Origin: an uncultured Planctomycetia bacterium
Lineage (GTDB): Bacteria; Omnitrophota; Gorgyraeia; 2-01-FULL-45-10
Assembly (NCBI GenBank): GCA_964433975.1
Contig: CAYSSS010000002.1
Location: 34,441 to 98,440, forward strand
DNA length: 64,000 nucleotides
Reading direction: 5' to 3'
Made by a program: the position numbers and the translations under genes. How positions within the stretch are numbered: position 1 is the first letter of the stretch; every line of letters begins with the position of its first letter. This document shows, piece after piece, positions 24,916-42,425 of the stretch. The notes under the pieces were generated by a model, which was not told the origin of the DNA, did no database searches, and saw only the letters and a list, made by a program, of their open reading frames with translations.

Positions 24916-25485
24916 GTGAAGATGATAAAATTGACCAAGTATATAATTACGGTGAGCCGGCTCGCCAGGATAATAGATTCCAGCGATGTCTGCAGGCGCC
25001 GGCATTGTTATAAGGTAGAGCGCTGTTCGCTCTTAATAGCCCAGAGAATAGGTCTTTCATCCAAAGAAGTCAGGGTAATAAAGATAGCCGGCATGCTGCA
25101 CGATGTTGGGAAAATAGGCATAGATCTGTCCATTATTAAAAAGCCCGCCAAATTAACGGCTGAGGAATGGGCGCAGGTAAAAAGGCATCCTGATATAGGC
25201 GCCAATATTGCGGGGCAGTTAGGTGTTCTTAAAGAAGCCTCAGATATTATAAGGCATCATCATGCGTGTTTCGGAGGAGGCGGTTATCCGGACCCAAAGA
25301 TAGCGGGCGAGAGGATTCCGATCGGATCGCGCATAATATTCGTAGCTGATGCTTATGATGCGATGACGAGCGACCGTCCTTATAGAAAGGCGATGTCGGA
25401 AGAGGCTGCCATTGATGAGCTGAAAAGATGCCGAGGCCGGCAATTCGACCCGGATATAGTAAAGGCATTTGTAAGTATTAAGTAG
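24916..25485 (+). CDS. Stand-alone HD-GYP domain protein (putative c-di-GMP phosphodiesterase)
   Basis: It starts 13 nt after the stop of the 12636 gene. ATG 24922 behind the SD AGGGG (24912-24916) may be the real start rather than GTG 24916. Motifs: GMLHDVGKIGI (HD), KRHPDIG, IIRHHHACFGGGGYPD (HH...GYP), FVADAYDAMTSDRPYRKA. The HHExxDG core reads HHACFGG, so activity is uncertain. Confidence 0.85.
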   Translation: MKMIKLTKYIITVSRLARIIDSSDVCRRRHCYKVERCSLLIAQRIGLSSKEVRVIKIAGMLHDVGKIGIDLSIIKKPAKLTAEEWAQVKRHPDIGANIAGQLGVLKEASDIIRHHHACFGGGGYPDPKIAGERIPIGSRIIFVADAYDAMTSDRPYRKAMSEEAAIDELKRCRGRQFDPDIVKAFVSIK

Positions 25486-25506
25486 AATAATATATGGAGG
25501 GATGTA

Positions 25507-28500
25507 GTGGGCGATTCAAATATTAAGCCAATTTTCAGGATCATATCGCTTATTCTGATCACCACCTTTATAGCATTAGATATCTCATGGGCTTACCCGC
25601 CTGATCCAAGCGTCCGGAACTCCACGCTAGCTGCGCCTTCACTACTACAGCAAGAGCCGATAAATGATCTCGCTGCGCGCCGGCAGCAATCTACGATCTC
25701 CGATGGTACCATCTTAGGCGCTGTCTGCAGTATTGCCAAATTTCTTCTTGAAGAAAAGATCAAGCTCAAGCATTTAGACCAGGTCCTGACAAGAGAGCTT
25801 GGAAGCGCCGTTCAGGGCATGGATCTGTCCCGCGTTATGGTCCAAGAGAACGGTGTGGTGCTTATTCCTTGCAAGATAGAAGGCAAAGAGAGGATTATAC
25901 AGGTGGCGCTGAAAGATAATGCCGCCGTCAAAGACCTGAAAGGCCGCGAGTGGCCCGTATTGGATAAATATGTAGTAAAAGAACTGCCCGAAGATCACAA
26001 GGATCCGGAAAAAATAGTAAAAGAAGAACGGCTTAGTTTTGTAATGATAAAGCCGGATGGCATAGCCGAAAAAGATCTGATAATAGAGAAGCTGGAAAAG
26101 AGGCTGAAGACTGATGGAGGCCGGATAGTCAAAATATTCGATCCGGTGAGATTGGATGAAGCCAAAGCGCGCGAATTCTATAGGGAGCATATGGAGCTCC
26201 CGTTCTTCAGAGGCCTTGTCACTTATATCCAGTCCGGCATGGTAATACCCATATTGGTGCAGTCCGGGAAAATAGACGCTATAAAGAATGTGCGCGATGA
26301 CGTAGTCGGCCCTACTATGGGTATCATTAAGACGACAGGCGCTGTCGCCGTAGGCACCATAAGGGGTGACCTCATGGCGGATGCTGATAGGCGTGCCCAG
26401 CCTATACCGAATAGAATTCACGCGTCCGATAGCGTTGCAAACGTCGTGCGTGAGGCAAATCTGGTTATCGGCAAAGATACATTTACCGAAGCATTGAGAG
26501 ATCTTGTTCAAGAACCGATCATTCGCGAAGGCCTTGACGTCCAGAAAAAGTCCGGCTCATTATACGAGGATATCATTGCCTCGATCAAACAGGATCTGGA
26601 TAGGCGGGGCGAGGTTTCCTTTGAGGAGTTGTTTGATTTAGTCCAGTCGCTGGTCCCGTCCTCAATGGAAAATCTTCATAAAGCGCTTGTGAAACTGAAG
26701 CCGCTCTCCGAGCGGAAAGATGGTGTCGAAGATACCGAAATATTGACTGCGATAGCGCGGGCGAAAAAAGATTACGGATTATCGGATAGAGAAACCGAGA
26801 TCCTCCGGCTGGCGTTCCTCGGCACGGGGCAAGGAATGAGCCCGAGATTTGAAGAGCTTGAACCGAGGGTTTTGTTAAGCGGGGGCACGAACACAGCGGT
26901 AGAGGATAATCCGGTTTATAACACCATGACTACGGCGATAGTCGCGAATAATTTTGATTACTCATCCAACGATACCGTAAGAGCATCCAATGAAACGCTT
27001 AGCGTAAACCTTGTTTCCAAGACAGCTGTAGTGACAAGATCTGACGGCGGCACCGCCACATTCACAAAGATAGCACTTGTAAATACCGCGGTATCGCCGG
27101 TGCCCAAAAAACTTTTGAGGGCGGGCGACTACACGGATTCATTGGGCCGCGCATGGAGCGTTTACGGCCGGTTGTCCGAATTAAAAGGGTTCAAAGACGC
27201 GGCCGGAACGCCGATAGATATGACTACGAAAAAAATAGTAGTCTTTACGTACGCAGACAGCGTACAGAAGTTATTCTCCAAGGCATCCGTATATGATCGC
27301 TCCGGCGTTCTATCCCTGCCAAGGCAATCGGCTCTGACATCTATAAATATCGGCGGACGGGATTTAAATATATACGGCACATTCAGCGCATTTAAAAACG
27401 CGAAGTACACCGTAACGCGGAAAAACTTAAAGATCACTATAGTCAACCGCAGCAATAGCCGTGACAAAAAGACATTTTCCGTAGGTCCTAAGAGATCGAT
27501 ACTTTCAGAGATGAACCTAACGGCCGATTATCTTTATTACACCGTGAGAACCAACGGAGTTTCAAAGTTAAAGTCCTTCGATCTTCATACCGGAGCGCCC
27601 CTGGCAACGATCAGTCCGGTTGATGTCAATACGCATCCGGCGGTGCCGGCCCAACCGAGCCTGGTATCGGTCCAATCCGGAGACAGACGTCTCTTTGTCC
27701 GGGACCGACTGCCCGACGGCACGCTCGGCCAGCAATACGCGCTTATCTCAAAAGGCGTCAACTGGTCTCCGGCTTCCATCGGCATGGACCCGGCGGCCAT
27801 CACCCAGGAATTCGTTAAATGGTACCAGGCCGACATTCCTTTGATGGCGCAGATGGGCATAAATGTTGTGCGCGTCTACCACGATTTTGGTACGGGCCAG
27901 GACGCTATGAATATACTGGACATGTTTTATAATTACGGCATCAAAGTGATAATGACAGTCGACTCGCCGCAGCATGGCGTCATAGCGGATATGAATAATA
28001 TATCGACGGTGGTCGATGCCTATAAAAACCATCCTGCCATATTGATGTGGGCCATAGGTAATGAGTGGGATATAAATAACTATTATGGCACCTTTACGAG
28101 CCTGGAGCAGTCAGCGCAATTTACCGAGCAGGCCGCTCAACTGATAAAATCCCTCGACTCAAACCATCCGGTTACGAGCGTCATAGGAGATATAGATAGG
28201 TCAGGCGCAAGCCCGCTTTCTACGGCAAATAATATCGTGAATAATCTGGTTCCTGATATTGATGTGTGGGGGATCAATGTATACAGAGGCTTGAGCCTGG
28301 GAGTAGTGTTCCAGCAGTGGAGGACGATATCCCAGAAGCCGATGTTGATAGCGGAGTTTGGGGCGGATTCCTATGACCATAGGATAAACGGGCAGAACCA
28401 GGCCATGCAGGCCTCTATGGACACCGGTATCTGGGACGAGGTATTTTTCGATTTGTCCGCCGAGCGGACCGACGGGGCAACTGTAGGCGTACTTGCCTTT

Positions 28501-30438
28501 GAATGGAATGATGAATGGTGGAAAGACGGCAGCAACGCCATCCACAATGTCGCCAGCGGAACAAATTACAGCCAGCCGGATGGATATGCTGACGAAGAGT
28601 GGTTTGGCGTAGTGGGTATTGACCGCGCTCCGAAAACCTTATATAGCCAATTACAGACGAGATATCTCAACGGCCAATCCGCGGTAGTTTTAAATTCCAA
28701 TCCTACAATAACCGTAACATCCCAAGGCAACCAGTCCGGCGCTTCATCTTTTTCCGTCAACGGGAAGAGCGCCTTTTATAGGGCCGGAGGCGCCGGAGGC
28801 GGGCGAGGCATTAATGTAGCGATTTTAGACAGCCATACCGGGATAAGGATGGATGACGCGCGCACGTTCGACACGTGGACAGGGCAGGGAGGATTCGGCG
28901 GGCTTCATACGAACTTTCAGCAATTGATCGATTATTTGAACAGTCTACCCGATGGCACGGTGATATCGTTATCGATATGCGATGAAGGTGGTTTTACAAT
29001 GGTAGACGGCACACCGTGGCCGAATGACCCTTATGTGACAGCCGCTTATCAGACGCTGGAATCTCTGGGAAGCACCAAGATACGAAATGTTGGTTATTGG
29101 GGAGGCTGGGCGATGGTGACGGTAAAGGGGCAGGGGGTCGTAGCGGAGGCATATTCATCCCCGAATGCGCCGGTAATGATTCAGGCGCAGGTCTCGCTTA
29201 TGCTCGATCCGAATTATGGCAAGCGTTCGGCGCCACGCGCGCAGAATATGGAATCTACTGCCATTATTGCAGCCGTCAATAAAGAACTAGATCAGAAGAA
29301 AGAATGGATGTTTCCGGAATTATTCTCCATAGTACAATCCAAGGTTCCGGTATCTATGGCCGGCCTCACAAGCGCGCTGACGGATCTACAACCGCTGTCT
29401 CTTCATAGCGATCTGAATGCCGACATCATAGTAGATGCGGTAAAGCAGGCGGGAGAAAAATACGGTTTGTCGGAAGGCGAAACAGAGATCCTCCGTCTCG
29501 CGCTCCTAGGCCCGGGCCAGGGCGCCGGTGAGATAGCGCCGGAGGCCAAAGATCCGGACGCTGATGCGGCCCGGCTTGCCGACATAGTGAAGTCTTCGCT
29601 GAATGATGAGAGGGCGAAGTTCATTGCGGTGGGTAAGAAGGTTGCCGGGCATCTTGATAAAAACATGACTACAACCGAAATAACAGAGAGAGTGAACAGG
29701 GCTATATCCGCCATAGAGGCATTAGACAAGGAAAGTGTGTCGCCTGAAATGCTGGCGAGCACGCAGTTCTTAAAAAAGAACCTCAATCAATTCGAGGCGG
29801 ACGGGGGCGTCGGGTCGCTGATAATTCTCGCCAGGCGCGCGAAGAGGGAAGGCCAAAAACTTATAATAGGCCTTGAGACGGACTGGATACCCGGCGGTAA
29901 TACAGAACACAGCCTTCAGGAGAAAGCGATCTTTGCGCTCATGAATGAGATAGGCGATATAGGCGAAGCGCTGAAATCCATGGGTCTCGATAACGTAGAG
30001 ATCGTCCGCGGAAGCGCGGATAGTTTAGCCGATTCCCTGAAGATGGCGGCGGCAAAGACGGATAGATTCAACAATACCGGCATGCATAATATCGTCGTTA
30101 TGGCGTCGAAAGATACGATAGCTTCAGAAAGCTTCAGAGAATTCAGAAACGCCGGCGAAAAAGATAAACCGTTCCTGACAGGCATAGACCCGACGGAGCT
30201 TATAAAGTTATACGAAAAGTACGGCGAATCGATCAGTAATCAGCTTCATATAAAGCTGGCGGCATGGCTTTATCTGACCCTGGAAGTTGCCGCCGGGAAA
30301 GAACCGCCAAATCTGTCATGGATAAAATACGACAGCACGGCGAGGATATTACTACTGATGCCCGGCGCGGAAATAATAGATTATGAGTTGCTTAAAAACA
30401 CCTATGCAGCTGAAAAAGCGGCATTGGCAGCAGCTTAG
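25507..30438 (+). CDS. Large (1,643 aa) exported multidomain protein: NDK, LEPR-XLL motif, clan GH-A glycoside hydrolase, FAM3/ILEI-type domain, shared C-terminal domain
   Basis: GTG 25507 lies 6 nt after the SD GGAGGG and 21 nt after the HD-GYP stop. Signal peptide IFRIISLILITTFIALDISWA|YP. Domain motifs are in the sub-features. C-terminal tail RILLLMPGAEIIDYELLKNTYAAEKAALAAA, then TAG 30436-30438. Confidence 0.92.
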   Translation: MGDSNIKPIFRIISLILITTFIALDISWAYPPDPSVRNSTLAAPSLLQQEPINDLAARRQQSTISDGTILGAVCSIAKFLLEEKIKLKHLDQVLTRELGSAVQGMDLSRVMVQENGVVLIPCKIEGKERIIQVALKDNAAVKDLKGREWPVLDKYVVKELPEDHKDPEKIVKEERLSFVMIKPDGIAEKDLIIEKLEKRLKTDGGRIVKIFDPVRLDEAKAREFYREHMELPFFRGLVTYIQSGMVIPILVQSGKIDAIKNVRDDVVGPTMGIIKTTGAVAVGTIRGDLMADADRRAQPIPNRIHASDSVANVVREANLVIGKDTFTEALRDLVQEPIIREGLDVQKKSGSLYEDIIASIKQDLDRRGEVSFEELFDLVQSLVPSSMENLHKALVKLKPLSERKDGVEDTEILTAIARAKKDYGLSDRETEILRLAFLGTGQGMSPRFEELEPRVLLSGGTNTAVEDNPVYNTMTTAIVANNFDYSSNDTVRASNETLSVNLVSKTAVVTRSDGGTATFTKIALVNTAVSPVPKKLLRAGDYTDSLGRAWSVYGRLSELKGFKDAAGTPIDMTTKKIVVFTYADSVQKLFSKASVYDRSGVLSLPRQSALTSINIGGRDLNIYGTFSAFKNAKYTVTRKNLKITIVNRSNSRDKKTFSVGPKRSILSEMNLTADYLYYTVRTNGVSKLKSFDLHTGAPLATISPVDVNTHPAVPAQPSLVSVQSGDRRLFVRDRLPDGTLGQQYALISKGVNWSPASIGMDPAAITQEFVKWYQADIPLMAQMGINVVRVYHDFGTGQDAMNILDMFYNYGIKVIMTVDSPQHGVIADMNNISTVVDAYKNHPAILMWAIGNEWDINNYYGTFTSLEQSAQFTEQAAQLIKSLDSNHPVTSVIGDIDRSGASPLSTANNIVNNLVPDIDVWGINVYRGLSLGVVFQQWRTISQKPMLIAEFGADSYDHRINGQNQAMQASMDTGIWDEVFFDLSAERTDGATVGVLAFEWNDEWWKDGSNAIHNVASGTNYSQPDGYADEEWFGVVGIDRAPKTLYSQLQTRYLNGQSAVVLNSNPTITVTSQGNQSGASSFSVNGKSAFYRAGGAGGGRGINVAILDSHTGIRMDDARTFDTWTGQGGFGGLHTNFQQLIDYLNSLPDGTVISLSICDEGGFTMVDGTPWPNDPYVTAAYQTLESLGSTKIRNVGYWGGWAMVTVKGQGVVAEAYSSPNAPVMIQAQVSLMLDPNYGKRSAPRAQNMESTAIIAAVNKELDQKKEWMFPELFSIVQSKVPVSMAGLTSALTDLQPLSLHSDLNADIIVDAVKQAGEKYGLSEGETEILRLALLGPGQGAGEIAPEAKDPDADAARLADIVKSSLNDERAKFIAVGKKVAGHLDKNMTTTEITERVNRAISAIEALDKESVSPEMLASTQFLKKNLNQFEADGGVGSLIILARRAKREGQKLIIGLETDWIPGGNTEHSLQEKAIFALMNEIGDIGEALKSMGLDNVEIVRGSADSLADSLKMAAAKTDRFNNTGMHNIVVMASKDTIASESFREFRNAGEKDKPFLTGIDPTELIKLYEKYGESISNQLHIKLAAWLYLTLEVAAGKEPPNLSWIKYDSTARILLLMPGAEIIDYELLKNTYAAEKAALAAA
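26029..26475 (+). other. Nucleoside-diphosphate kinase (NDK) domain
   Basis: RLSFVMIKPDG...AREFYREHMELPFFRGLVTYIQSGMVIPILV...GTIRGDL...NRIHASDSVANVVREANL. The catalytic His codon is at 26419-26421 within the NxxH[GA]SDS signature. Confidence 0.85.
26557..26845 (+). repeat. Intragenic ~95-aa protein repeat, copy 1 (ends in YGLSDRETEILRLAFLGTGQG), immediately followed by ELEPRVLLSG
   Basis: IIASIKQDLDRRGEVSFEELFDLVQSLVPSSMENLHKALVKLKPLS...AKKDYGLSDRETEILRLAFLGTGQG aligns without large gaps to copy 2 at 29253-29535. Confidence 0.7.
27730..28670 (+). other. Clan GH-A (beta/alpha)8 glycoside-hydrolase domain (GH5/GH2-TIM-like)
   Basis: KGVNWSP...GINVVRVYHDF...NHPAILMWAIGNEWD (candidate acid/base NE, 28058-28069)...DVWGINVY...PMLIAEFGADSY (candidate nucleophile E, 28351-28362)...LAFEWNDEWWK. 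Confidence 0.7.
28770..29170 (+). other. FAM3 / ILEI (PANDER-like, GG-type) domain
   Basis: GRGINVAILDSHTGIRMDDARTFDTW...LIDYLNSLPDGTVISLSICDEGG...AAYQTLESLGSTKIRNVGYWGGWAMVTVKGQG. This is colinear with FAM3C as I remember it: [25 protein letters not shown]...FLKAIQDGTIVLMGTYDDG...[26 protein letters not shown]. Confidence 0.75.
29253..29535 (+). repeat. Intragenic ~95-aa protein repeat, copy 2 (ends in YGLSEGETEILRLALLGPGQG)
   Basis: IIAAVNKELDQKKEWMFPELFSIVQSKVPVSMAGLTSALTDLQPLS...AGEKYGLSEGETEILRLALLGPGQG. It pairs with copy 1, and together the two copies bracket the hydrolase and ILEI section. Confidence 0.7.
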
Positions 30439-30565: not shown

Positions 30566-32150
30566 GTGATTTTACCAAGACTAACTACAATGGCGCGGCT
30601 TAAAAAGGTCGTGGCTATAGTTTTACTGCCCACGTTTATTCTCTCCAACATTGCGTTTGCTGAGACATCAAAAGTTGCCACGACAAATACGCCTTCTAAG
30701 CCCGTAGAGACAGTTACCAACCCGGATAAGATAGTAATTCCCCGTGATTATGGTTTGGTAAAATCCAGATATACCGCCAAAGACTCTAACAGGCTTATTG
30801 TGCACATCCAGGATGCCCATTGCAATTATGAGGCCCAGTCAAATATCATAAAGATACTGGAATGTCTCGTAAAGAACGACGGCTTGAGCCTCGTATCGGT
30901 GGAAGGCGCGGACGGATTCATTGACACATCATGGTTCAAGGCATTCCCGGACAAAGACATAAGAAAAGAAGTCGCCGACTACTTCATGAAAAAAGGCGAG
31001 ATAACCGGGCCTGAATTCCTCTCCATAACCACAAATTCCAATATAAGGCTATTCGGCGCCGAAACGCGCTCGTACTATATAGAAAATCTGAACGCCTTCA
31101 CCTCAAGCTACCCTCTCAAAGAAGATACCGAAAAGTATTTCAATCAGATAAAGGCTGTCCTTAATAAACTTAAAGCCTACATATACAGCGAAGAATTGAA
31201 GGAACTTGACTTAAAGAGTCAGGACTACGAATCGAAAAAGTTGTCATTTACTGACTATGTCAAGTATTTGGAAACTCTGGGCTCCAGATATAAAGTAGCC
31301 GTAAGGCCGTACGAAAACCTGTTCAAGCTGATAAGCGTCCTTGTCTATGAGAAGAAGATAGATTTTAACGTTGTCGATAAGGAACGCGCCGCCGTCATTG
31401 ATACGATCACTAAGAAGCTCGACAAGGAGAGCCTGACGGAGCTCGTCAATAAGTCGCTCGAATTCAAGTCCGGAAAGATCTCCTCGGCCGAATATTACGA
31501 TTATCTAAGGGCGCTTGCCGTGAAATACGGGATCTCTCTCTCGTCGGAATATCCGAACCTCTTCAACTACATAATCTATAATCCCGTATATTCCAGGATA
31601 GAGAATGAGCATCTCTTCGACGATATAAAGAAGTTCGAAGAAGCCCTGAAAGAGAAGATCTTCGCCAATAATGACCAGAGAGAGCTCGAGAGGCTGTCCA
31701 GGCACATAAATACGCTCCTTGGCCTGGCCAATATAAAGTTATTAAACGGCGATTTCGATTACTACAAAGAGCACAGGGACGAATTCAGCCATGAAGCGTT
31801 TGCCTCCTTTATAAACAAGATGTCTGGGCGCTATGGATTTGCGTATGAAGTAGACCAGCCATCCGAGGCCGTAAAAGAGAGCATGCCGAAACTCGAAGAC
31901 TTTTATTCCATAGCGATAAAGCGCGATAAGGCGCTGGTCGATAATACGCTCAACGCGATGAATAAGGAAGACGCCCGCATTTCCGTGCTGGTGACCGGAG
32001 GCTTCCATTCCGAAGGCATAACCAAGCTATTGGAAAAACAGGGCGTGTCATATATAGTGATATGCCCCAACATCACGAAAGAAGTAGAGACGCCTTACAT
32101 CAAGATACTTACGAACCAGCGCACGCCGCTGGAAGAGATACTCTCGGATA
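30566..32150 (+). other. Shared N-terminal module, copy B (divergent)
   Basis: LIVHIQDAHCNYEAQSNIIKILECLVKNDGLSLVSVEGADGFIDTSWFKAFPDKDIRKEVADYFMKKGEITGPEF ... ISVLVTGGFHSEGITKLLEKQGVSYIVICPNI...PYIKILTNQRTP. The motif order matches copies A and C. Confidence 0.7.
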
Positions 32151-35100
32151 CGGGAGCTACAGCCGACACGAAAAGTGTCAAGGGCAATATGCTCGCGCCG
32201 TTTTCGATAGCGTGGGCGATAGGGCTTGACGAAAAACAATTAAACAGGGTCAGCCAGGCAGTTTTACGGTCTGATTTACATGGTACAACCATTGCGATGA
32301 AAGACCGATGGCTTGGGCTCAATCTCAAGAATTGGATCTACCGGGCGCTTCAATATGCTAAGAAATACAATATTCCTGCCGATAAAGAGATCGTCAGGAA
32401 CGCGTATATTGCGGCTATGAGGCAAACGGCAGGAACGCTTAAAAATTTCGTTCATGACAAAACAGAACGCATTATCGCTGACCCGAATTTCAAGAGCGTG
32501 TTCGACGAGGTATTCGATACCTTCCAGAATCCAGCGCAGGATAAACCGGCGCAAGGCGAAGTAAAGGCGCCGGATACGAGCGTGAGAGAGAAGAGTGTCA
32601 AGGCAACGCTAGGCGACGATAGTATCGATCCGATCATAAGGGACTACAAAACTAAGAAAACCACTATATGGGATGACGGAAAATCAACGACGGGCAACGC
32701 CGGATACATTCAGATAATAACCCTTTTGAAAAGTATCGTAAACGATCTGGATGATGAAGTTTTCCGATCCATATTGGAAGACGGACTTATTAATGCTGGT
32801 TCAGACGAGCGATTAATAAATGCTTTTACAAAAGAGAATCTCCTAAAAAATCTAGAGCCTAGTTCCGACTTTAAGGTAATCCTCGTACAGCCGAAAGACC
32901 AGATCCCCGGCATACGCATCCCGGGCATACTCATGACCAGGCCGGGATCCAACTTCGGGCACTACAGCCTCAACAATAAATGCATATATACAGGCCAAAC
33001 TGAAATTGATGAATTGTTGGCAGATGGCTCTTCTGAATCACTGAGAGAAGCGGCTACCCTTCTTATGCATGAATTAGCCGAATATACGGTTCGGAGCATT
33101 GCGGCACCGGGGACAAAAGCGGAACATGGGGAAGATGCAGGTGATATATCATTAAAAGTGCATCGCATAGCCGAACTGTTAGAGAGGCGCATAGTCGGGC
33201 CTTCAAAAATACACAAAGACGATAATATCCTTAGCGCTCTTGACGATACCCTGGAAATAAGGACCATGACATATTTCGACTCGATAACGCCGCATCTGCT
33301 GGAAGAGGCCAAAAAGATGTTTAATCTTAAGGATGTAGATGTGATGTATCTTGGTCAAATATGGTCACAGTACCTTAAAAGAAATAAACCATCGCCCAAG
33401 ATAATAACAGACCTTTCCATAATACAGCATCCTAAATATGATCCTGACGGCATCGATCCTAACTTCATACTCATGTCAATGTTGTTAGAGTTGGCTCCGG
33501 CTGAGAGGGCAAGATTAGGCCTGACCGAAGAAGCGATGGAGAAATTAATAGCTAAAGAATACCCGAAATTAAAGACTGAAACAAATAGGCTAAAAGCGGC
33601 GAATGATATTGTGCTTACAATCAACTCCCTTGACGGCGGCATAGGCGAGAATTTCGGCCGTCTTAAATGGCTTCAGGAACGTGCTAAGGCAGCCGGCAAG
33701 TCACCCAAAGAGATTAAAAACATAAGAATGACAGCCAAGGGGACAGATATCGGTTTCGATGTAGAATATAAAGGTAAAAAAGAGTTCGTAAGCATAGCGG
33801 AACTTAAACTAATGCAGGTCATTGAGTTGGCAAGGCAGTGTAAGTTCCTTCATATAAGGTTCCAGCCTCTCGTCAACTGGCAGTCAAAGGAAGCCTACGA
33901 TACATTGTTGAATACCTATTGCCTGGATGACCGCGTTGATGACCGCGTTGATGACGGGAAGAAAAGTAAAAAGACTTACGGCAGGGTCATGCAGGAATTA
34001 GGCATAAACATCCTTGATATGATTGAGCAGGCGGACCTGCCGGCAGTCAAAAAAAACATGGGCAATATATCATTGTCCCCGCACGCGACACGTCAACCCG
34101 GCGGCCACGGCCAATTTGGATTCCTGTTTTTATACGATTCCTTTTTTAATAGCGCACTGGATACCCAGAAAGAGGACGGCAAGACACACATACGCGTTTT
34201 CTATAATGGAGATAATCCGAATAGCCATGCCGATCCTTATGTAGCGGGCGAAATGGCACGTAAGCATTGGCCTATAGTAAAATTAACTACGCTTGCCATG
34301 CCGATAGATAAGAAAGGCGGCAAGGACGGAGTCAGGGTCATAAAAGAGGGAAATGAAATAACCTTTGTGCCGGCCCAAATGGAAGAAGGGGACGCAAAGA
34401 GCGCGAAACAATTGCCCGTATTTCATAAGGCAGGGCTGCCGGGAGGTTTAGGGAAATCCGGACAACAGCCTTTCAACACGAATATATTTTATATAAATAC
34501 TACCGTTCTTCATGACATCCTGAAAGAATTACTGGAATTAAGAGACGGTAATGGTAAGGAGATCATAACGAAAGAGGAGTTTTGCAGGATCATAAGCCCC
34601 ACTCTTATTGATAAGGCGGGAAAGGTAAGCACTGACGGAAGAGAATACATACCGCTTGACGGCGCGATAGGGACCGCAATGCTTAATCTCAACGAATTCT
34701 TCCTGACTAGCAAGGATCCGAGAGTTAAAGATATTCTGAGCCCATATGGTATAGACCGGATAGTTTATTGCGTGAATGTGCCTAGGACAGAGTTTTTCAC
34801 GCCTAATAAGACATGTTCTGACGGATGGATGCAGTTCTATAGTGACTATTATACCCGTTTGGATACTACCGACTGGATGCTGCACGACCGAGAAGGAAAA
34901 ACCGAACCTCCTGAATTTGATGTAATTGATGACGAAATGTACTGGAATGAATTGCAGAACCTGGTAGATTCATTTGGTAATGCTAGTGTCAGGGGCCCTG
35001 AAGGATCGAACCTGGTCCTGAAATCGCTAAGGATAAGAGGGGCAGTCAAGCTTAAAGACGCGCAACTTACCGGGGATGTTGTAATAATAAATAAGAGCGA

Positions 35101-38100
35101 TAAAAATGTCGATCTGACAAAGGCCAATGAGCTAGCATCTTACCTTCAAGGCAGTAGATTAGCATTAAACGATATACTGATCATTGTGGAAAAAGATGGC
35201 ACTATCACTTATAGATCTCTGGCGGAGTTATATGAACATGACGAAAACACGGTCAAAGGCATCCTTGTCGATCTCGGCGTCCCGCAAGGGGTGATAGATT
35301 TTATGCTGATAAGCATGGCAGCGGCGAAATTAAGCGCTGAGAGAAACGGTACCGGCGCGATACGTGGGAAGGGCGGAGAGCTTACCCTCACCGAACATGG
35401 CACGAGAACTTATGGCATATCCGCGTCACAGGTTCTGCTAGCAAATGAAATGAAGGGCGAGGCGACCGTAAATGGCGCCATAGCGAAACTCGTGATGGCT
35501 AAAAAAGCCTTTACATTTCTCCCTGATTATCAGAGGCTTATCAGCTCCGACAAAATTCTGCCGGTATGGGAATGCGGCTTAAACTCTTTAAACGATACTC
35601 AGGAAGACAATGTCGCTCAACTCTATAAAATTATCGGGAAATCGGGGTTAAATTTTGTTATAATCAAAGGCCTGAGAAAAGAGATAGAGGCCCGGGTGCC
35701 GAGCGCGGCGGATCTGATATTCCATCCGGGCGTCACAAGGAAGTACGTATATATGGATGAGAATGACTTCCTTCATCTTCTGTTGTTTTCCAACGGCGTG
35801 GAGCTGATAAGAGAGGCGCTGGAACACGAAAAAGCGGATATCGACAATCCGGGGTTATCCGAAGAGGCGATCGAAAAAATAGCGCCGACGAATAATGTGA
35901 GGTTAGCATTGAAGATGAAAGATTTGAATGTAAAGGCGTTGTTACGCACCGCAAAGACGGAAGTAGAAAAATATCTCACAGCGCAGCATGACTCCAGGGA
36001 AATAACCGACGAGATATATGAAAGTGCAAAGGCCACCTACAAGAACCTTGAAGCGTGGGTCACGGATGAGCATATAAACAGGGTATCTCCGATGACCAGG
36101 CTGGCTATACTTGATGCAATTAAACAAGCCATCCAGGATGGTAACTGGTTTGACATAGTGGATGTATTCAGGCAGGATGTCACATTCGGCACCGCCGGTA
36201 TACGTGAAAAAGCCGCGCTTACGGAAGAAGCGCTCAAAAAACTGGCTCAATACGGGCCCGGAGCCGGTATCTTGAAAGGACCCAACACGATAAATGACAT
36301 AGTGTTGCTGATAAAGACGGCAGGCGTGATTCAATACGCTAAAAAGAACGGACTGCATAAGGTAGCTATCGGTTATGACAGCCGTATCGCCGGAAAACAG
36401 TTCGCGGAGCTTATAGCGCAATCTTTCCTGGCGCATTCCACAAAAGGCCACGAATTCACCATTTATATGTTTGACGAAGCGAGCCCGTTCCCGGAGCTTT
36501 CGTTCGCTGTCACTACGAAAAACGTCAGGGCAGATCTTGGCATATTGATCTCCGCCAGCCACAACCCCTCAAATTATAACGGCTACAAGATCACCAACTA
36601 TACAGGCATGCAGCTTGCAGGCAACATGAGAGATGCCATTGTAGACGCTATTAAAGGAGTGACAACAAAAGATATACAATTGAAACCGATTGAGGAAGCC
36701 AAAGACGGCCAACTGATATGGTTGGGCGGCAAAGAACGCATCGTCGGCAAGGATTATAAAGACGGAAAATACCACAGACAGTTGATAGATATGCACACTT
36801 TACACGTAGAGCAGGTTAAGAAGTTCATCATTGATAGAGACGTAGTCAGGCAATACGCTCCCCGGGTAAAAGTAGGATATGCCGCATTTAATGGCGCAGG
36901 ATACAGGGCAGTCCCGAGGTTATTACAAGAACTGGGTTTTACGGATACCAAAGTCATAAGTTCGTTGCAAGAAATGAATGGCATGTTTCCGGCGTTTGGT
37001 TGGGGTGAACAGCCGGACCCCGGAGACCCTATATCCGCCGACATAGCCGTGCGTGAATTTGTAAAAGAACACGGGCAGCGGGCATTCGATGACCTTGATA
37101 TATTGATCGGCACGGATCCGGATGCTGACAGGGCCGGATTGATAGTTAAGGTCCCGGAGCCGCAGCAGAAATTTTTTGGTAAATATAAACTATTATCAGC
37201 GAATGACGCGTGGACGCTTCTTTTGTGGTACCGGATGCAGCGTGAGACCGAACTTAACGGCGGAAAATTACCGGACGCCGGCAACAAATATATCACATTT
37301 TCACATGTTACCACCGACGCGCTGGAGCGGGTAGGAAAATTGTTTGGCGTGGATTCATTGGGTGAGATGAAGAATAAGGAAGGCGAAGAGGCCGGTGACT
37401 ACCTTAACGGTAAACGTTCATGGGTCGGGTTCAGCCTGATAGCCGAATTCTGCCAAGAAGCGCGTGCTGCCGGTAAGACTAATCTTGGCGGCGCGGAAGA
37501 GAGCAACGGCTTCAGTATCCTCGGAGGGCCTATAGCACAAGGTGAGATCCTGGCGAATGACGGCCACGTTAATGATAAGGACGGGGCGTTCGCAGCTTTA
37601 CTGCTGGCGGAAGTCACGGCGTACGCGAAATCTAAAGGAACAACATTATTTGGATTATTAGACAATATATACCTTAACCCTGGCGTGGGTTATTTTGCCA
37701 CAGCCAATAAGCCAATGCCGAGGGTGGGCGCTTTTAAAGGCGCGGAAGGTATTACGAAGAAGATGAATTTATTGAAACAGGCGCAGGCCTGGATGAAAGA
37801 GGCCAATGGGAAGGTAGGCACAGGAAGTCCGTTCATGTTGGCCGGTTTGCCGGTGATAGGCGCTATTGAGTTCAAAACAGCGAAATATGACGAACAGCAT
37901 TATGCGGGGTTTCCGGATGAAGGCATAAGATTTTTCTTTGCCGACCCTGATTTAAAACCGGGAGACCCGTTTACGAAGAGCAGAAACTATATTACGATAA
38001 GGCCGGCAGGTACGTCACAAACCCTGCGTTTTTATGTTCAGCTCTTTGCAGACGACATTGATGGACAGAATATCGGGAACGTCAAATATAGAGATATGAG

Positions 38101-41098
38101 AAGGGCAGAAGCCTTGGCGCTTCAGACGCAAGTTGAGTTGCTTGAGGCCGCGGACTATAGGTCGGATATCAGCAATGTGACCGACCAGATGTTGAAAGCC
38201 GGATATGAGCCTGCTAATATAAAGAAGCTCATATCCATGCAAATTGATGCAGCCGCGCAGAGAGAGATTGCTAAAAAAGCACCTGGTGTTACAGTGGAGC
38301 TGCCGGTGGCCCTGTCGGATGAATTAGTGGCACGGATGACGAATATAATAAGTACGATGGCCACGCAGACAGGCCGATGGGCGACTGAGCAATTTGTCGA
38401 CGGTGGAAAGACTATGCTCGGATGGATGAATCTTGGCGCCTGGAGAAACGGCCCGATGGCAAGTATGATGCAGGATATGGCCGATTTTGCGCGACAGGTG
38501 CAGGAAGAAAAAGCGAGAAAAGACTCGAAAGATCCGGAAGAAATAGCAAAGGGCGTAACGACGGACATCGTGTTTATCGGCCAGGGAGGGTCGGTAGAGT
38601 GCATCAAGACATTAAGCGCTATTTTTGGCGTCAGTAAAAAAGCGCCGAATATCCATATCATAGATACGACTGACGAGGAGTATATCGGACAGCTTAAAGA
38701 AACGCTGCCTTATAAGACCACGAGGTTTGTGGTCCTGTCAAAGTCTATGACAACAGGCGAAGTCCATTCCGGATATAAATTATTCTTTGACGACGCGATG
38801 AAGAGGACTGGTTTAAGCGAAAAGGAAGTCGCAGAGAAATTTACCCTTATTACAGATAGTGGTAAGGCATCGGTTAGTAAAGTTTCCGGAAAAACAGTTT
38901 TAACCGTAAGCGAAAAAGTCAGAGAGCCGTTCAGAACGGAAGTATTGAAGCGTGGCTTTTCCAATGTCTTTTATATCGAGCCGAACACCGGCGGGCGTTA
39001 CTCATGGGATACCGCCGTCGGAATACTGCCGGCAATGATCATGAGCGAAGATATTGGGAATGTAAATAAAGTGTTAAATGGCGCACAGGGCATGGAGGAA
39101 ACGGCAAAGAACCCATATTTCGCGGATAATGCCGCGGCCCAGTACGGCGCGTTCAAGTACGCGATGCAGCTTGAAGGGCGCAATCGCCCGACGCTGGTAC
39201 TCCCTGACGAGATCGCGGGCTACGGGCCATGGTATGGCCAGCTGGATACGGAGAGTCTGGGCAAGACAAATGAAAGGTCAAGCGTTGTCATAGACCATGA
39301 AGCGTTTGCCGTAAATCCCGAAGTCTATACCCAGAAACGATTCTTCGTGCGCGTTAAACTTGGAGCAAGTGATACAAGACTCGATGGCGCCGTGAGGAAG
39401 CTCAAATCCTACGATTTGCCGGTATTTACAATAACTCTTCCCAATTCATCTCCCGGTAAAGTCAACTACGAGGACTTCGGGGCGTTCCTTAAATTAAGCG
39501 AATTCGCTACGGCTATCGCCGGATATCTTATGGATATAAACCCTGTCAATCAGCCCGGGGTGGAATCGTATAAGAGGGCGCAGGAGCTCTATCTTAAGAA
39601 CGGCGTACCGGCATTCAACCCTGCGTACACAACCACATCCGGCGCAATAACGCTCAATTATGAAGCGGCTATAGGTGAAGAGAGCGAAGGCAGGATAAGC
39701 AAGGCAAGGCTTGAAGAGGCGTTGAAGAGCCTGGGCAGTTCGACCGCCGCCGCGAAATACGCGGCCCTTACCTATCTGGCAGTTACGGAACACGGGCGTG
39801 ATTATGCCACCATGATGATATTCAAAAAGCTCGCTTTGCAGCCGTCCCTCACAGAATCGCTGAACTCATGGCGCAAAAGCGTGCGTCTGGCGTTCACGCA
39901 AACAAACTTCAGGGTAGATACTCTGGGAGAAGAGGCGCCGTGCATTCTGCATGCCAAACAGCAAGGTTTCTCGCAGGGTGAGAATTCGGGCTTCTTTACG
40001 ATCGTGCGTTTTTCGCAGTACGGTAATAACAACATAGTGGTTCCGGGTTCAGAAGAAAATTACGGCGCAAAGCGGACATTTTCCGAATTTACCAAAGCGC
40101 AGGCCGCCGGCACACTGGCAGCCTTAAGCGAAGCCAAGCGGCTTGGAGTCATGGTGGAGATAGACAATAGCAAACCCGAAAATATTGACAAGAATGTTCA
40201 GGCATTCGCGGATTTTGTCGAAGAGGCCAACAAGCATCTGGATAAACTGGTCGAGCTTTCACAAGAAAATACGCCAAAGCCCATTGCTACCATGACAGCG
40301 CCACCGGAGAGTACCGCTAAGGCCATAGTAGAGCCGACCAATACGGAATTGACAGGGACTTCGTCGATAGATACATATGCCAGTTTACCCGTCAGCGAAA
40401 AAGTCGAAAGAATAATCGCCAAAGTTCTCCAGCAAAAGGGCACGGCTATTTCGCCGGCGATCGTTCAAAGAATGAAAGTTGAGCTGACAGCTTTAGAAAA
40501 CACTATTGGCAGCATAGGTCTACCTAATATAGAACGCAAGCCAATAATCATTGCCCACGATACTGGGCTTGATCCGGAGTCCGATACGACAGACGTCGCC
40601 CAGGCCGCAGAGGCCTACCTCGAAGAGCATTACGGCGGAAAGTTTATAGTCGCGAGGGGTAAAGGCGAAAAACTGATCGAACAGATCCGTATCGCAAGGT
40701 CCAGATTAAACGATGAAAATGCAGCCGTTGTTACTATCGCCGGAGACGAAACTCTCGACGCCATAAAAGCGGCCGCTGCGAAGTCATCTAATACAAGCGT
40801 AAAGGACTTGGCAGGGACGATCCTGAACGTACAGATAAATCCTAGCGAACCTTATGTTCCGTTCGTGATGTTATATAGCCTTGCCTTCAGAATAGTATAT
40901 GATCAAGTGGACGACGATACGGTAAGTCTCCTGAATGCGTTCATGGATTATGTGACCGCAGGCGATAATGTACAACCGTTTACTTCAGCCGATCTGAAGC
41001 AGGGCATTATAAGAATATTACCCAGGACGGGACGCATAAATCCTACCGAGGCGCGCGAAGCATATCTCGCGCAAGCCGCAGCTCTGAGATCGTTGTAA
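30566..41098 (+). CDS. Giant (3,510 aa) exported protein fusing the N-module with UDP-sugar pyrophosphorylase, phosphohexomutase and glucose-6-phosphate isomerase, plus the shared C-terminal domain
   Basis: Uninterrupted 10.5-kb ORF. GTG 30566 lies 6 nt after GGAGG; the alternative start ATG 30590 gives MARLKKVVAIVLLPTFILSNIAFA|ETSK. Domain motifs are in the sub-features. C-terminal tail GIIRILPRTGRINPTEAREAYLAQAAALRSL, then TAA 41096-41098. Confidence 0.92.
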   Translation: MILPRLTTMARLKKVVAIVLLPTFILSNIAFAETSKVATTNTPSKPVETVTNPDKIVIPRDYGLVKSRYTAKDSNRLIVHIQDAHCNYEAQSNIIKILECLVKNDGLSLVSVEGADGFIDTSWFKAFPDKDIRKEVADYFMKKGEITGPEFLSITTNSNIRLFGAETRSYYIENLNAFTSSYPLKEDTEKYFNQIKAVLNKLKAYIYSEELKELDLKSQDYESKKLSFTDYVKYLETLGSRYKVAVRPYENLFKLISVLVYEKKIDFNVVDKERAAVIDTITKKLDKESLTELVNKSLEFKSGKISSAEYYDYLRALAVKYGISLSSEYPNLFNYIIYNPVYSRIENEHLFDDIKKFEEALKEKIFANNDQRELERLSRHINTLLGLANIKLLNGDFDYYKEHRDEFSHEAFASFINKMSGRYGFAYEVDQPSEAVKESMPKLEDFYSIAIKRDKALVDNTLNAMNKEDARISVLVTGGFHSEGITKLLEKQGVSYIVICPNITKEVETPYIKILTNQRTPLEEILSDTGATADTKSVKGNMLAPFSIAWAIGLDEKQLNRVSQAVLRSDLHGTTIAMKDRWLGLNLKNWIYRALQYAKKYNIPADKEIVRNAYIAAMRQTAGTLKNFVHDKTERIIADPNFKSVFDEVFDTFQNPAQDKPAQGEVKAPDTSVREKSVKATLGDDSIDPIIRDYKTKKTTIWDDGKSTTGNAGYIQIITLLKSIVNDLDDEVFRSILEDGLINAGSDERLINAFTKENLLKNLEPSSDFKVILVQPKDQIPGIRIPGILMTRPGSNFGHYSLNNKCIYTGQTEIDELLADGSSESLREAATLLMHELAEYTVRSIAAPGTKAEHGEDAGDISLKVHRIAELLERRIVGPSKIHKDDNILSALDDTLEIRTMTYFDSITPHLLEEAKKMFNLKDVDVMYLGQIWSQYLKRNKPSPKIITDLSIIQHPKYDPDGIDPNFILMSMLLELAPAERARLGLTEEAMEKLIAKEYPKLKTETNRLKAANDIVLTINSLDGGIGENFGRLKWLQERAKAAGKSPKEIKNIRMTAKGTDIGFDVEYKGKKEFVSIAELKLMQVIELARQCKFLHIRFQPLVNWQSKEAYDTLLNTYCLDDRVDDRVDDGKKSKKTYGRVMQELGINILDMIEQADLPAVKKNMGNISLSPHATRQPGGHGQFGFLFLYDSFFNSALDTQKEDGKTHIRVFYNGDNPNSHADPYVAGEMARKHWPIVKLTTLAMPIDKKGGKDGVRVIKEGNEITFVPAQMEEGDAKSAKQLPVFHKAGLPGGLGKSGQQPFNTNIFYINTTVLHDILKELLELRDGNGKEIITKEEFCRIISPTLIDKAGKVSTDGREYIPLDGAIGTAMLNLNEFFLTSKDPRVKDILSPYGIDRIVYCVNVPRTEFFTPNKTCSDGWMQFYSDYYTRLDTTDWMLHDREGKTEPPEFDVIDDEMYWNELQNLVDSFGNASVRGPEGSNLVLKSLRIRGAVKLKDAQLTGDVVIINKSDKNVDLTKANELASYLQGSRLALNDILIIVEKDGTITYRSLAELYEHDENTVKGILVDLGVPQGVIDFMLISMAAAKLSAERNGTGAIRGKGGELTLTEHGTRTYGISASQVLLANEMKGEATVNGAIAKLVMAKKAFTFLPDYQRLISSDKILPVWECGLNSLNDTQEDNVAQLYKIIGKSGLNFVIIKGLRKEIEARVPSAADLIFHPGVTRKYVYMDENDFLHLLLFSNGVELIREALEHEKADIDNPGLSEEAIEKIAPTNNVRLALKMKDLNVKALLRTAKTEVEKYLTAQHDSREITDEIYESAKATYKNLEAWVTDEHINRVSPMTRLAILDAIKQAIQDGNWFDIVDVFRQDVTFGTAGIREKAALTEEALKKLAQYGPGAGILKGPNTINDIVLLIKTAGVIQYAKKNGLHKVAIGYDSRIAGKQFAELIAQSFLAHSTKGHEFTIYMFDEASPFPELSFAVTTKNVRADLGILISASHNPSNYNGYKITNYTGMQLAGNMRDAIVDAIKGVTTKDIQLKPIEEAKDGQLIWLGGKERIVGKDYKDGKYHRQLIDMHTLHVEQVKKFIIDRDVVRQYAPRVKVGYAAFNGAGYRAVPRLLQELGFTDTKVISSLQEMNGMFPAFGWGEQPDPGDPISADIAVREFVKEHGQRAFDDLDILIGTDPDADRAGLIVKVPEPQQKFFGKYKLLSANDAWTLLLWYRMQRETELNGGKLPDAGNKYITFSHVTTDALERVGKLFGVDSLGEMKNKEGEEAGDYLNGKRSWVGFSLIAEFCQEARAAGKTNLGGAEESNGFSILGGPIAQGEILANDGHVNDKDGAFAALLLAEVTAYAKSKGTTLFGLLDNIYLNPGVGYFATANKPMPRVGAFKGAEGITKKMNLLKQAQAWMKEANGKVGTGSPFMLAGLPVIGAIEFKTAKYDEQHYAGFPDEGIRFFFADPDLKPGDPFTKSRNYITIRPAGTSQTLRFYVQLFADDIDGQNIGNVKYRDMRRAEALALQTQVELLEAADYRSDISNVTDQMLKAGYEPANIKKLISMQIDAAAQREIAKKAPGVTVELPVALSDELVARMTNIISTMATQTGRWATEQFVDGGKTMLGWMNLGAWRNGPMASMMQDMADFARQVQEEKARKDSKDPEEIAKGVTTDIVFIGQGGSVECIKTLSAIFGVSKKAPNIHIIDTTDEEYIGQLKETLPYKTTRFVVLSKSMTTGEVHSGYKLFFDDAMKRTGLSEKEVAEKFTLITDSGKASVSKVSGKTVLTVSEKVREPFRTEVLKRGFSNVFYIEPNTGGRYSWDTAVGILPAMIMSEDIGNVNKVLNGAQGMEETAKNPYFADNAAAQYGAFKYAMQLEGRNRPTLVLPDEIAGYGPWYGQLDTESLGKTNERSSVVIDHEAFAVNPEVYTQKRFFVRVKLGASDTRLDGAVRKLKSYDLPVFTITLPNSSPGKVNYEDFGAFLKLSEFATAIAGYLMDINPVNQPGVESYKRAQELYLKNGVPAFNPAYTTTSGAITLNYEAAIGEESEGRISKARLEEALKSLGSSTAAAKYAALTYLAVTEHGRDYATMMIFKKLALQPSLTESLNSWRKSVRLAFTQTNFRVDTLGEEAPCILHAKQQGFSQGENSGFFTIVRFSQYGNNNIVVPGSEENYGAKRTFSEFTKAQAAGTLAALSEAKRLGVMVEIDNSKPENIDKNVQAFADFVEEANKHLDKLVELSQENTPKPIATMTAPPESTAKAIVEPTNTELTGTSSIDTYASLPVSEKVERIIAKVLQQKGTAISPAIVQRMKVELTALENTIGSIGLPNIERKPIIIAHDTGLDPESDTTDVAQAAEAYLEEHYGGKFIVARGKGEKLIEQIRIARSRLNDENAAVVTIAGDETLDAIKAAAAKSSNTSVKDLAGTILNVQINPSEPYVPFVMLYSLAFRIVYDQVDDDTVSLLNAFMDYVTAGDNVQPFTSADLKQGIIRILPRTGRINPTEAREAYLAQAAALRSL
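33540..35150 (+). other. UDPGP-family (eukaryotic-type) UTP-sugar-1-phosphate uridylyltransferase domain
   Basis: LTINSLDGGIGENFG (compare LNGGLGTxMG), QPGGHGQFG (compare PxGHGD), RVFYNGDNPNS (compare NxDNLGA), IDKKGGKDG (compare KGG), QPFNTNIFYIN (compare FNTNNxW). A beta-helix-like tail follows (LKSLRIRGAVKLKDAQLTGDVVIIN). Confidence 0.75.
36040..38060 (+). other. Alpha-D-phosphohexomutase (PGM2/PgcA-like phosphoglucomutase/phosphomannomutase) domain
   Basis: All four family loops are present in order: FGTAGIRE; GILISASHNPSNYNGYK (phospho-Ser codon 36557-36559); IGTDPDADRAGL (metal loop); GGAEESNGFS (sugar loop); IRPAGTSQTLRFYVQ (phosphate loop). Confidence 0.88.
38400..40160 (+). other. 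Glucose-6-phosphate isomerase (PGI) domain
   Basis: IVFIGQGGSVECIKTL (compare IGIGGSxLG), FVVLSKSMTTGEV (compare SKSGTTxET), NTGGRYSWDTAVGILPA (compare GGRxSxxSxxGxxP), WYGQLDTESLGK (compare QLxMESxGK). Confidence 0.82.
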
Positions 41099-42362: not shown

Positions 42363-42425
42363 TCAGGTGTAATAGGAACAAAAAGGCAGTTCTTAACACA
42401 ACATTTTTTGAGGGTGATATAAAAA

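Follow-up and report, generated by a model that had tools for sequence, protein, structure and literature searches.

We analyzed a 64,000-nucleotide stretch of DNA (the window) from an uncultured Omnitrophota bacterium, positions 34,441 to 98,440 of contig CAYSSS010000002.1 in assembly GCA_964433975.1. Five long open reading frames (ORFs), all on one strand of the window, encode, in order, at least 3,670 amino acids (aa; this ORF is truncated at the start of the window), 4,088 aa, 1,643 aa, 3,510 aa, and, in an ORF that continues past the end of the window, more than 7,192 aa. Three small genes are interspersed among them. The 1,643-aa product, which starts with a GTG codon, is a modular protein. 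It carries, after an N-terminal signal, a nucleoside diphosphate kinase (NDK) domain. NDK is a textbook stand-alone housekeeping enzyme, and this report is about what such a domain is doing inside a long protein. From the N-terminus, the modules are a signal and conserved N-module, the NDK domain, a linker, a beta-rich region followed by a GH158-like glycoside hydrolase (GH) and an ILEI domain, a second linker, and a conserved C-module. We refer to the conserved parts as the scaffold and to what lies between them as cargo.

Identity of the NDK domain

An earlier note on this DNA had placed an NDK domain within a long signal-peptide protein, at 26029-26475 (aa 175-323). A Pfam search bears this out: aa 177-324 align to positions 3-133 of the 135-position PF00334 profile, with an expect value (E) of 2.9e-20 and a score of 73 bits, where the cut-off is 27. 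In a sequence search of the PDB, the region aligns over its full length to solved NDKs. We then modeled aa 165-335 with AlphaFold2. The model has a mean predicted local distance difference test score (pLDDT) of 87, rising above 93 in the NDK core, and its top 50 Foldseek matches in the PDB are all NDKs, at a probability of 1.00 and TM-scores of 0.5-0.7. As modeled, the domain has the alpha/beta ferredoxin-like fold of NDKs.

The note had also described the core motifs as intact, including NRIHASDS with the catalytic His. Indeed, the active-site set is complete, with all 10 residues in place: K182, Y225, F233, R263, T270, R286, N302, H305, S307, and E316. N302, H305, S307, D308, and E316 align to their counterparts in 3VVT and in canonical NDKs, within and beyond the N-x-x-H-(G/A)-S-D motif. 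K182, Y225, F233, R263, T270, and R286 correspond to the nucleotide- and phosphate-binding residues, K16, Y56, F64, R92, T98, and R109 in Dictyostelium numbering. A further claim was that the Kpn loop carries an insertion. The loop is longer than in canonical NDKs, although we find two insertions rather than one, the first following GPT and the second preceding NRIH; small further insertions occur elsewhere in the domain. The insertion region of the Kpn loop is the only poorly modeled part of the NDK model, with a pLDDT of 46-68. The domain is an apparently intact NDK-fold module that is probably competent for phosphotransfer. Against the NCBIfam equivalog for Ndk (NF001908), it scores 72.3 bits, below the cut-off of 155. 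An ORF on the opposite strand, 25774..26511, was also considered as a gene; with no match in Pfam, it is best taken for a shadow ORF.

Table 1. Features of the scaffold gene and its direct neighbors (window coordinates)
Feature	Position	Strand	Description	Basis
Scaffold gene	25507..30438	+	1,643-aa modular protein (P0001, 100% identical)	ORF list and translation
Shine-Dalgarno sequence	25496..25500	+	GGAGG, 6 nt 5' of the GTG start	read from the sequence
Signal peptide or signal anchor	25507..25590	+	Sec-type, aa 1-28, ...FRIISLILITTFIALDISWA|YP	single hydrophobic segment of the protein
N-module	25507..26004	+	aa 1-166, conserved	63% identity to P0002, 59% to P0003, 32-34% to P0133/P0134
NDK domain	26029..26478	+	aa 175-324	PF00334; PDB sequence matches all NDKs; AlphaFold2 and Foldseek
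Insertion 1 (Kpn-loop segment)	26317..26352	+	aa 271-282, MGIIKTTGAVAV, 5-7 residues over canonical length, after GPT	alignments
Insertion 2 (segment)	26380..26409	+	aa 292-301, DADRRAQPIP, 6 extra residues, before NRIH	alignments
Catalytic His305 codon	26419..26421	+	in NRIHASDS	alignment to solved and canonical NDKs
Linker module, copy 1	26572..26841	+	aa 356-445, ending ...LSDRETEILRLAFLGTGQG	internal repeat, 52% identical to copy 2
Glycoside hydrolase	27796..28686	+	aa ~764-1060, clan GH-A TIM barrel, GH2_C/GH158-like	PF02836, E 1.1e-11, aa 774-957
ILEI/FAM3-like domain	28804..29133	+	aa 1100-1209	PF15711, E 5.4e-16
Linker module, copy 2	29263..29526	+	aa 1253-1340, ending ...LSEGETEILRLALLGPGQG	internal repeat
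C-module	29560..30435	+	aa 1352-1643, conserved, LIIGLETDWIPG motif, ends ...AALAAA	57% identity to P0002
HD-GYP-type gene	24916..25485	+	189 aa, 21 nt before the scaffold gene, HHHACFGGGGYP motif	PF13487 HD_5, 109 bits
Downstream giant gene	30566..41098	+	3,510 aa, PGM/PMM and PGI domains	Pfam

A clade of embedded NDKs

To place the domain among its relatives, we ran an exhaustive HMMER search over 1.84 billion protein representatives and re-scored the matches per domain. Eight representatives form a clade: the window's protein and P0133, P0134, P0136, P0006, P0138, P0139, and P0152. The other members match its NDK at 72-137 bits per domain and 44-54% identity, whereas all stand-alone NDKs score 60 bits or less, the closest of them at 36-42% identity. 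The complete members (six besides the window's protein) are 934-4,741 aa long, and P0152 is a 261-aa fragment. Both Kpn-loop insertions, along with smaller clade-specific ones, are common to the embedded members; in insertion 2, the pattern D.DR..QPI.N.IH is conserved in P0133, P0134, P0136, P0138, P0139, P0152, and P0006. The embedded NDKs are thus a separate clade, found only as part of long modular proteins. Apart from NDK, the clade proteins carry Pfam domains of alpha-glucan phosphorylase, APH kinase with HEAT repeats, PEP-utilizers_C, and GT2; P0139 has no Pfam match other than NDK.

Across six aligned members, the catalytic His, the Lys, the Tyr, both Arg, the Asn, the Ser, and the Glu are invariant. 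At the position of the phosphate-binding Thr, some members have another residue (GPL in P0006, GPP in P0139, GPI in P0152); the window's protein keeps the Thr.

P0006, from an Omnitrophota metagenome-assembled genome (MAG) at NCBI, is the only clade member with a taxonomic label. A more distant embedded NDK, P0201, likewise comes from Omnitrophota, and P0279 and P0304 also carry Omnitrophota or Omnitrophica labels, as does the MAG of the best-matching locus, L001.

Other searches mostly returned ordinary enzymes. A word-indexed homologue search with the NDK domain alone gave only stand-alone NDKs (32-43% identity) and none of the embedded ones. A metagenome scan with an NDK-plus-linker query had no match, and one with the clade alignment recovered a single clade member (L088, on a contig of 46,435 bp, the length on record for P0139), the remainder being ordinary NDKs at 26-38% identity. 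Tandem-NDK proteins were among the top scorers, owing to their repeated NDK domains, and were considered as relatives; they are annotated chytrid TXNDC3/6-type proteins, unrelated to the clade. The closest stand-alone NDKs in the exhaustive search, P0170 and P0173 (147 aa each), have 5-6 additional residues at the site of insertion 2, before N.IH, and do not have insertion 1. The stand-alone ancestor of the embedded clade may have been of the kind seen in these two, of which P0170 carries no annotation beyond "MAG: bacterium."

A conserved scaffold with replaced cargo

A search with the full-length protein led to relatives that share its ends and differ in between. P0002, P0003, P0004, and P0005 match at the conserved ends and carry other cargo: HEAT repeats in P0002; DUF218, HEAT repeats, and guanylate kinase in P0003; hexokinase, HATPase_c, and DUF218 in P0004; and ROK kinase and DUF218 in P0005. 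Two clade members combine NDK with other cargo, glucan phosphorylase in P0133 and APH kinase and HEAT repeats in P0134. Between the N-module and the last linker, the window's protein and P0002 do not align at all.

The neighborhood shows that this is a difference at one locus. In GCA_041643095.1 and GCA_041643025.1, the gene order is that of the window: a giant gene, an HD_5 gene, the scaffold gene (P0002), and a giant gene with PGM/PMM and PGI domains. Loci L081-L083 show this order. HD-GYP orthologues lie directly upstream of P0002 (68% identity) and of P0005. The first 594 aa of the window's downstream giant protein are 73% identical to the product of the gene downstream of P0002, and a similar gene lies downstream of P0003. 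Partial versions of the order are present in L085 and L086, the contexts of P0003 and P0005, and the conserved neighborhood (window 12636-41098) has an HD_5 gene of about 187 aa across several Omnitrophota assemblies. Because gene order and flanking-gene identity are conserved, P0002 is the positional orthologue of the window's protein, and it lacks NDK. Since the same-locus gene in related genomes has different cargo, the cargo between the conserved ends appears to have been swapped by recombination.

N-module and NDK, conversely, are an old pairing. Of the segments that the window's protein shares with P0133 and P0134, the NDK is conserved best (48-50% identity); the N-module reaches 32-34% and the C-module 35-42%. 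This pattern argues for purifying selection on NDK.

The N-module has no Pfam match. The linker, about 85 aa long, sits at the end of each cargo cassette and is also found in P0002, P0003, P0133, and P0134; its end motifs are LAL.GPGQG and LS..ETEILRLA(F/L)LG(T/P)GQG. The linker may mark a site of processing or a boundary for recombination, and its LS..E..IL...G.G pattern is loosely like the double-glycine leaders that C39 peptidases cut. The C-module has 29 further homologues, mostly Omnitrophota fragments, with invariant residues that include D81, R92, Q99, T107, W109, N145, N177, and S183 (module numbering). Its AlphaFold2 model (pLDDT 90) is an alpha/beta domain after long helices, and a Foldseek search of the PDB gave no meaningful fold match (best E 0.019, TM-score below 0.3). 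BLAST and jackhmmer did not find the N-module, linker, or C-module in the neighboring giant ORFs, with which only a short C-terminal motif is common. The GC-content profile has no sharp step that would mark a cargo boundary.

The second cargo of the window's protein is a predicted glycan-degrading cassette. The earlier note had a glycosidase following the NDK; the enzyme is real, but it is not adjacent, lying about 450 aa beyond the NDK. It has NEW at aa 851-855 and AEFG at aa 948-951, and its closest solved structure is the GH158 enzyme 9oro (E 1.8e-10). The ILEI region finds FAM3C and the stem domain of POMGnT1 in sequence searches. A contig scan with the full protein kept 80 loci, mostly GH/ILEI homologues of many phyla, and none of these 80 loci has an NDK. 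Homologues of the GH158-like and ILEI cassette (27600-29250; L002-L080) are 30-55% identical and come from many unrelated phyla, with Verrucomicrobia, Gammaproteobacteria, Chloroflexia, Acidobacteria, Planctomycetes, Myxococcota, and Oligoflexus among the taxa. The occurrence of stand-alone homologues across unrelated phyla suggests that the cassette moves horizontally. The closest relative at the level of cargo is L001 (JAPLMH010000085.1, positions 2-3646, an Omnitrophota MAG from Lac Pavin), which matches aa 356-1643 at 44% identity, covering linker, beta-rich region, GH, ILEI, linker, and C-module. The L001 contig ends exactly where the N-module and NDK would lie.

Predicted export

The only hydrophobic segment of the protein is at its N-terminus. 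K7 and R11 precede a 13-residue hydrophobic core, which is followed by SWA|YP and acidic residues, and no other transmembrane-like segment is present in the 1,643 aa. This arrangement predicts an N-in/C-out orientation, with a Sec-type signal or signal anchor. The signal motif is conserved in P0002-P0005, P0133, and P0134, and a similar one (...AAWA|GD) is found in L004, a stand-alone Omnitrophota homologue of the GH. Classical signal peptides also stand at the head of most full-length GH/ILEI homologues in other phyla, with L002, L003, L004, L007, L010, L013, and L029 as examples. As there is no membrane helix between them, NDK and the GH/ILEI unit should share one compartment. With a single N-terminal signal, no later transmembrane helix and a GH/ILEI cargo of the secreted type, the NDK is probably exported.

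Interpretation and alternatives

The reading that we favor, at a probability of about 0.5, is that an active NDK cassette is exported together with the glycan-degrading cassette and acts on nucleotides at the envelope or at the interface with prey. NDK would be a lineage-specific cargo cassette of an Omnitrophota modular scaffold whose cargo is exchanged between conserved ends via recombination. The whole polypeptide would leave the cytoplasm behind its one N-terminal signal, and the NDK would interconvert nucleoside diphosphates (NDPs) and triphosphates (NTPs) at the envelope or where the cell, as an epibiotic or predatory nanobacterium, meets its prey or host; Omnitrophota have been proposed to be epibionts or predators. 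The domain is most likely to have an accessory, niche-specific function rather than to be the housekeeping enzyme. We infer that it is probably exported and enzymatically active and that its substrate pool is probably extracytoplasmic. The earlier note had offered a secreted, host-acting NDK as its alternative, and the predicted signal peptide and the secreted type of the partner cargo are compatible with that.

Several points weigh against this reading. NDK requires an NTP and an NDP, and these are not known to be available in a periplasm. Two clade members have an NDK that is predicted to be cytoplasmic, P0139 having no signal or transmembrane segment and P0006 carrying its NDK after an N-in two-helix hairpin. 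The partner cargo elsewhere is typically cytoplasmic (alpha-glucan phosphorylase, PEP-utilizing enzyme, GT2, APH kinase, hexokinase, guanylate kinase), and most of these partner enzymes are ATP-dependent. The N-terminal motif is unusually conserved for a cleaved signal peptide, and so the anchor may be retained. The sidedness of the protein comes from the positive-inside rule and from analogy. Finally, given the poor modeling of the Kpn loop, the insertions may affect activity or oligomerization.

In a different picture, the N-terminal helix would be an uncleaved anchor and most of the protein would lie on the cytoplasmic face as a membrane-tethered metabolon, its NDK regenerating UTP, GTP, or ATP locally for enzymes of NDP-sugars and glycans or for cyclic di-GMP (c-di-GMP) synthesis. 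We regard this as the main rival, less likely than export. It would account for the two NDKs that look cytoplasmic and for the company NDK keeps in its clade, where the partners are sugar- or glycan-related and nucleotide-dependent (alpha-glucan phosphorylase, which has GlgE and GT5 genes as neighbors, GT2, and PEP-utilizers_C) and where P0133 and P0134 have glycogen-related neighbors. In the window, a giant gene with GGDEF and PEP-utilizers_C domains, the HD-GYP gene, and the scaffold gene are packed with gaps of 14 and 21 nt, and the gene downstream of them carries PGM/PMM and PGI. The sugar-metabolism modules of long proteins that have only transmembrane segments have also been read as facing the cytoplasm (bioRxiv 10.64898/2026.06.07.730766). 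However, the charges around the sole hydrophobic segment predict N-in/C-out, and the motif ends in SWA|Y, which is signal-peptidase-like. The GH/ILEI unit, from a family that otherwise bears signal peptides, is on the same chain with no transmembrane segment between, and the second cargo is a hydrolase, not a glycosyltransferase.

The earlier note's main proposal was that, if this domain is the only ndk of the genome, a giant-protein operon has taken over the cell's housekeeping balance of NTPs. All catalytic residues are intact, no second NDK is present in the window or in any fetched locus, and related long proteins bear the name "nucleoside-diphosphate kinase" in NCBI and JGI annotation. 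The comparisons nonetheless leave the proposal unsupported, and we think it very unlikely. The 72 bits are far under the NCBIfam equivalog cut-off, the domain belongs to a clade apart from all stand-alone NDKs, the positional orthologue in related genomes does without NDK, the closest relatives of the scaffold carry guanylate kinase, hexokinase, or ROK in its place, and export is predicted. Moreover, ndk is dispensable in E. coli, where adenylate kinase and pyruvate kinase can substitute, and a sole ndk copy therefore need not be housekeeping. KEGG module definitions also give pyruvate kinase as an alternative for purine steps. Even less probable is that the NDK fold is kept as a pseudo-enzyme, a noncatalytic module for nucleotide binding, oligomerization, or scaffolding. 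The two insertions and the low-confidence part of the model fall in the Kpn loop, a key element of oligomer contacts and of the active-site wall, and the phosphate-binding Thr is replaced in P0006, P0139, and P0152. Against this stand the eight residues invariant in the aligned clade members, the Thr kept in the window's protein, and the conservation of NDK, higher among paralogues than that of any other part of the protein.

Two other proposals, both of them unlikely in our view, concern what becomes of the polypeptide. Its linkers, ending L-A-L-x-G-P-G-Q-G, might be processing sites of a polyprotein, from which NDK would be freed as a ~20-30-kDa enzyme; the proposal fits both localizations. 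Each of the two cassettes is closed by a linker (aa 356-445 and 1253-1340), and the module also ends cassettes of P0002, P0003, P0133, and P0134. West-Roberts et al. have proposed proteolytic processing of Omnitrophota giant proteins, noting that its cleavage points are not known. On the other hand, no C39 or S8 peptidase domain was detected in any window ORF, and the conservation of the ~85-aa linker along its whole length points to a folded domain more than to a plain cleavage site. The other proposal extends the export of NDK to the scaffold family as a whole, which would be a cargo-delivery system: exported NDK, guanylate kinase, hexokinase, ROK, and glucan phosphorylase would act on the prey cell from its surface or from within and drain or rewire its nucleotide and sugar pools, with cargo being shuffled, like that of polymorphic effectors, through recombination at the conserved locus beside the HD-GYP gene.

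Surroundings of the scaffold gene

The best sigma-70-like promoter in the 24-31.5 kb region is at 30469-30496 (TTGACA, 16 nt, TATACT, with an extended -10 TG), after the scaffold gene; there is no comparable site before it. This position of the site suggests that the GGDEF-containing giant gene, the HD-GYP gene, and the scaffold gene are cotranscribed and that the downstream giant gene has a promoter of its own. The GGDEF domain of the upstream giant beside the HD-GYP gene hints at a c-di-GMP link. Scans of the window with Rfam and for tRNAs had no match.

The complete C-termini of four long ORFs of the window (10930-11020, 24810-24902, 30345-30438, and 41005-41098) have a similar motif of about 30 residues, in which a hydrophobic strand (such as ILLLMP, FILLPP, or IIRILP) is followed by a helix and an end of small residues (...ALAAA, ...IIRSA, ...ALRSL, ...TARSL). 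All complete proteins of the embedded-NDK clade end likewise (...LIAA, ...LQSA, ...LTAA, ...ASAA, ...SAAA, ...LMAA). The motif could be a signal for sorting, secretion, or protease recognition; an -LAA ending resembles the ssrA/ClpX and Tsp tags. Term searches of two preprints on Omnitrophota giant proteins (cited below) did not find this motif.

At the other end, the 4,088-aa and the >7,192-aa ORFs begin with a nearly identical motif (12636-12850 and 42423-42700), REELG.K.LIMD.QS..NKKW.RAVALFL...F.NQD..WAQ.G.PVW.KG., which ends in ...WA like the ...DISWA|YP of the scaffold protein. In the last ORF (42423-63998, >7,192 codons), transmembrane-like helices are densely clustered in two places, aa ~1777-2223 and ~6620-7188. 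For the first 4,000 residues, Pfam gives no match at E ≤0.001, and for the rest, only a subthreshold match to PsaS. Two small genes lie each between two giant genes. One (11189-12058) encodes a 289-aa protein with a Bro-N domain and is followed by a 577-bp noncoding gap before the next giant ORF; Bro-N is common in phages and mobile elements. The product of the other (41663-42199) is 178 aa long and has a signal peptide and a carbohydrate-binding domain of the CBM_11 family.

Relation to known systems

The window's domain shares with canonical Ndk/NME proteins (PF00334) the fold, the ping-pong catalytic His in N-x-x-H-(A/G)-S-D, and the full set of binding residues. Canonical Ndk is a soluble oligomer of ~140-150-aa subunits, whereas here the domain is part of a 1,643-aa protein with a secretion signal and has two insertions in its Kpn loop. 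NDK domains embedded in long multidomain proteins are also known from NME8/TXNDC3 and NME9/TXNDC6. The chytrid matches of this type, in contrast, have tandem NDK repeats at ~33% identity, without the clade insertions and in an unrelated architecture.

Mycobacterium tuberculosis, Pseudomonas aeruginosa, and Porphyromonas gingivalis have secreted NDKs that act on host nucleotides. Like these enzymes, the NDK described here is likely to work outside the cytoplasm of its producer, and its phylum is proposed to live on other cells. The secreted bacterial NDKs, however, are ordinary stand-alone proteins that are not known to carry a Sec signal; here the NDK is a cassette beside a glycosidase, and its secretion is predicted only. 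In having conserved termini and a central cargo that differs among close relatives at one locus, the scaffold is like MARTX and polymorphic toxins, by analogy and not by homology. MARTX proteins have RTX repeats, a cysteine-protease domain, and toxin domains; none of these was detected in the window's protein with Pfam or NCBIfam, and its cargo consists of metabolic enzymes.

Giant proteins with metabolic domains (PGM/PMM, PGI, TPI, FBP aldolase, PPDK, hexokinase, and ROK) have already been described in Omnitrophota, under the names "Archaeovorins" and "multi-enzyme metabolic clusters" (bioRxiv 10.1101/2023.11.21.568195; 10.64898/2026.06.07.730766). The window's protein has much in common with them: the phylum, a same-strand array of very long genes, and an N-terminal signal or transmembrane segment. 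Cytoplasm-type domains in long polypeptides (PGM/PMM, PGI, PEP-utilizing, hexokinase, ROK, GGDEF) are likewise found both in these giants and in the region studied here and its relatives. At 1,643 aa, the protein is well under the published catalogue thresholds for Omnitrophota giants, at least 10 and at least 30 kaa (thousand amino acids). C39, S8 peptidase, and SecA-like domains are absent at E ≤0.01 from this protein and at E ≤0.001 from the other window ORFs. Both preprints meet a paradox over the membrane side, and one suspects that transmembrane helices have been missed. Of the proteins that bear signals, the multi-enzyme content is placed in the periplasm or outside the cell, and of those with transmembrane segments only, on the cytoplasmic face (bioRxiv 10.64898/2026.06.07.730766). 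In term searches, NDK is mentioned neither in the two preprints nor in one supplementary file of the latter, and a scaffold of N-module, linker, and C-module with locus-conserved cargo replacement was not found in either preprint. A full-text literature search for Omnitrophota together with nucleoside diphosphate kinase gave no result, and in Omnitrophota papers and supplements ndk came up only within KEGG module definitions.

Significance

A dedicated clade of NDKs serves here as interchangeable cargo on a scaffold with a secretion signal, in a phylum whose members are ultra-small and probably depend on hosts. The protein is a compact case, at 1.6 kaa, of the Omnitrophota puzzle of ATP-dependent "cytoplasmic" enzymes on polypeptides that are predicted to exit the cytoplasm. 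It offers experimental handles on this puzzle in its conserved N-terminal signal, the recurring linker motif, and a conserved C-module without a fold match in the PDB. If the enzymes face the cytoplasm, domain shuffling would have produced membrane-tethered metabolons. If the protein is exported, nucleotides would be manipulated outside the cell as part of an epibiotic lifestyle.

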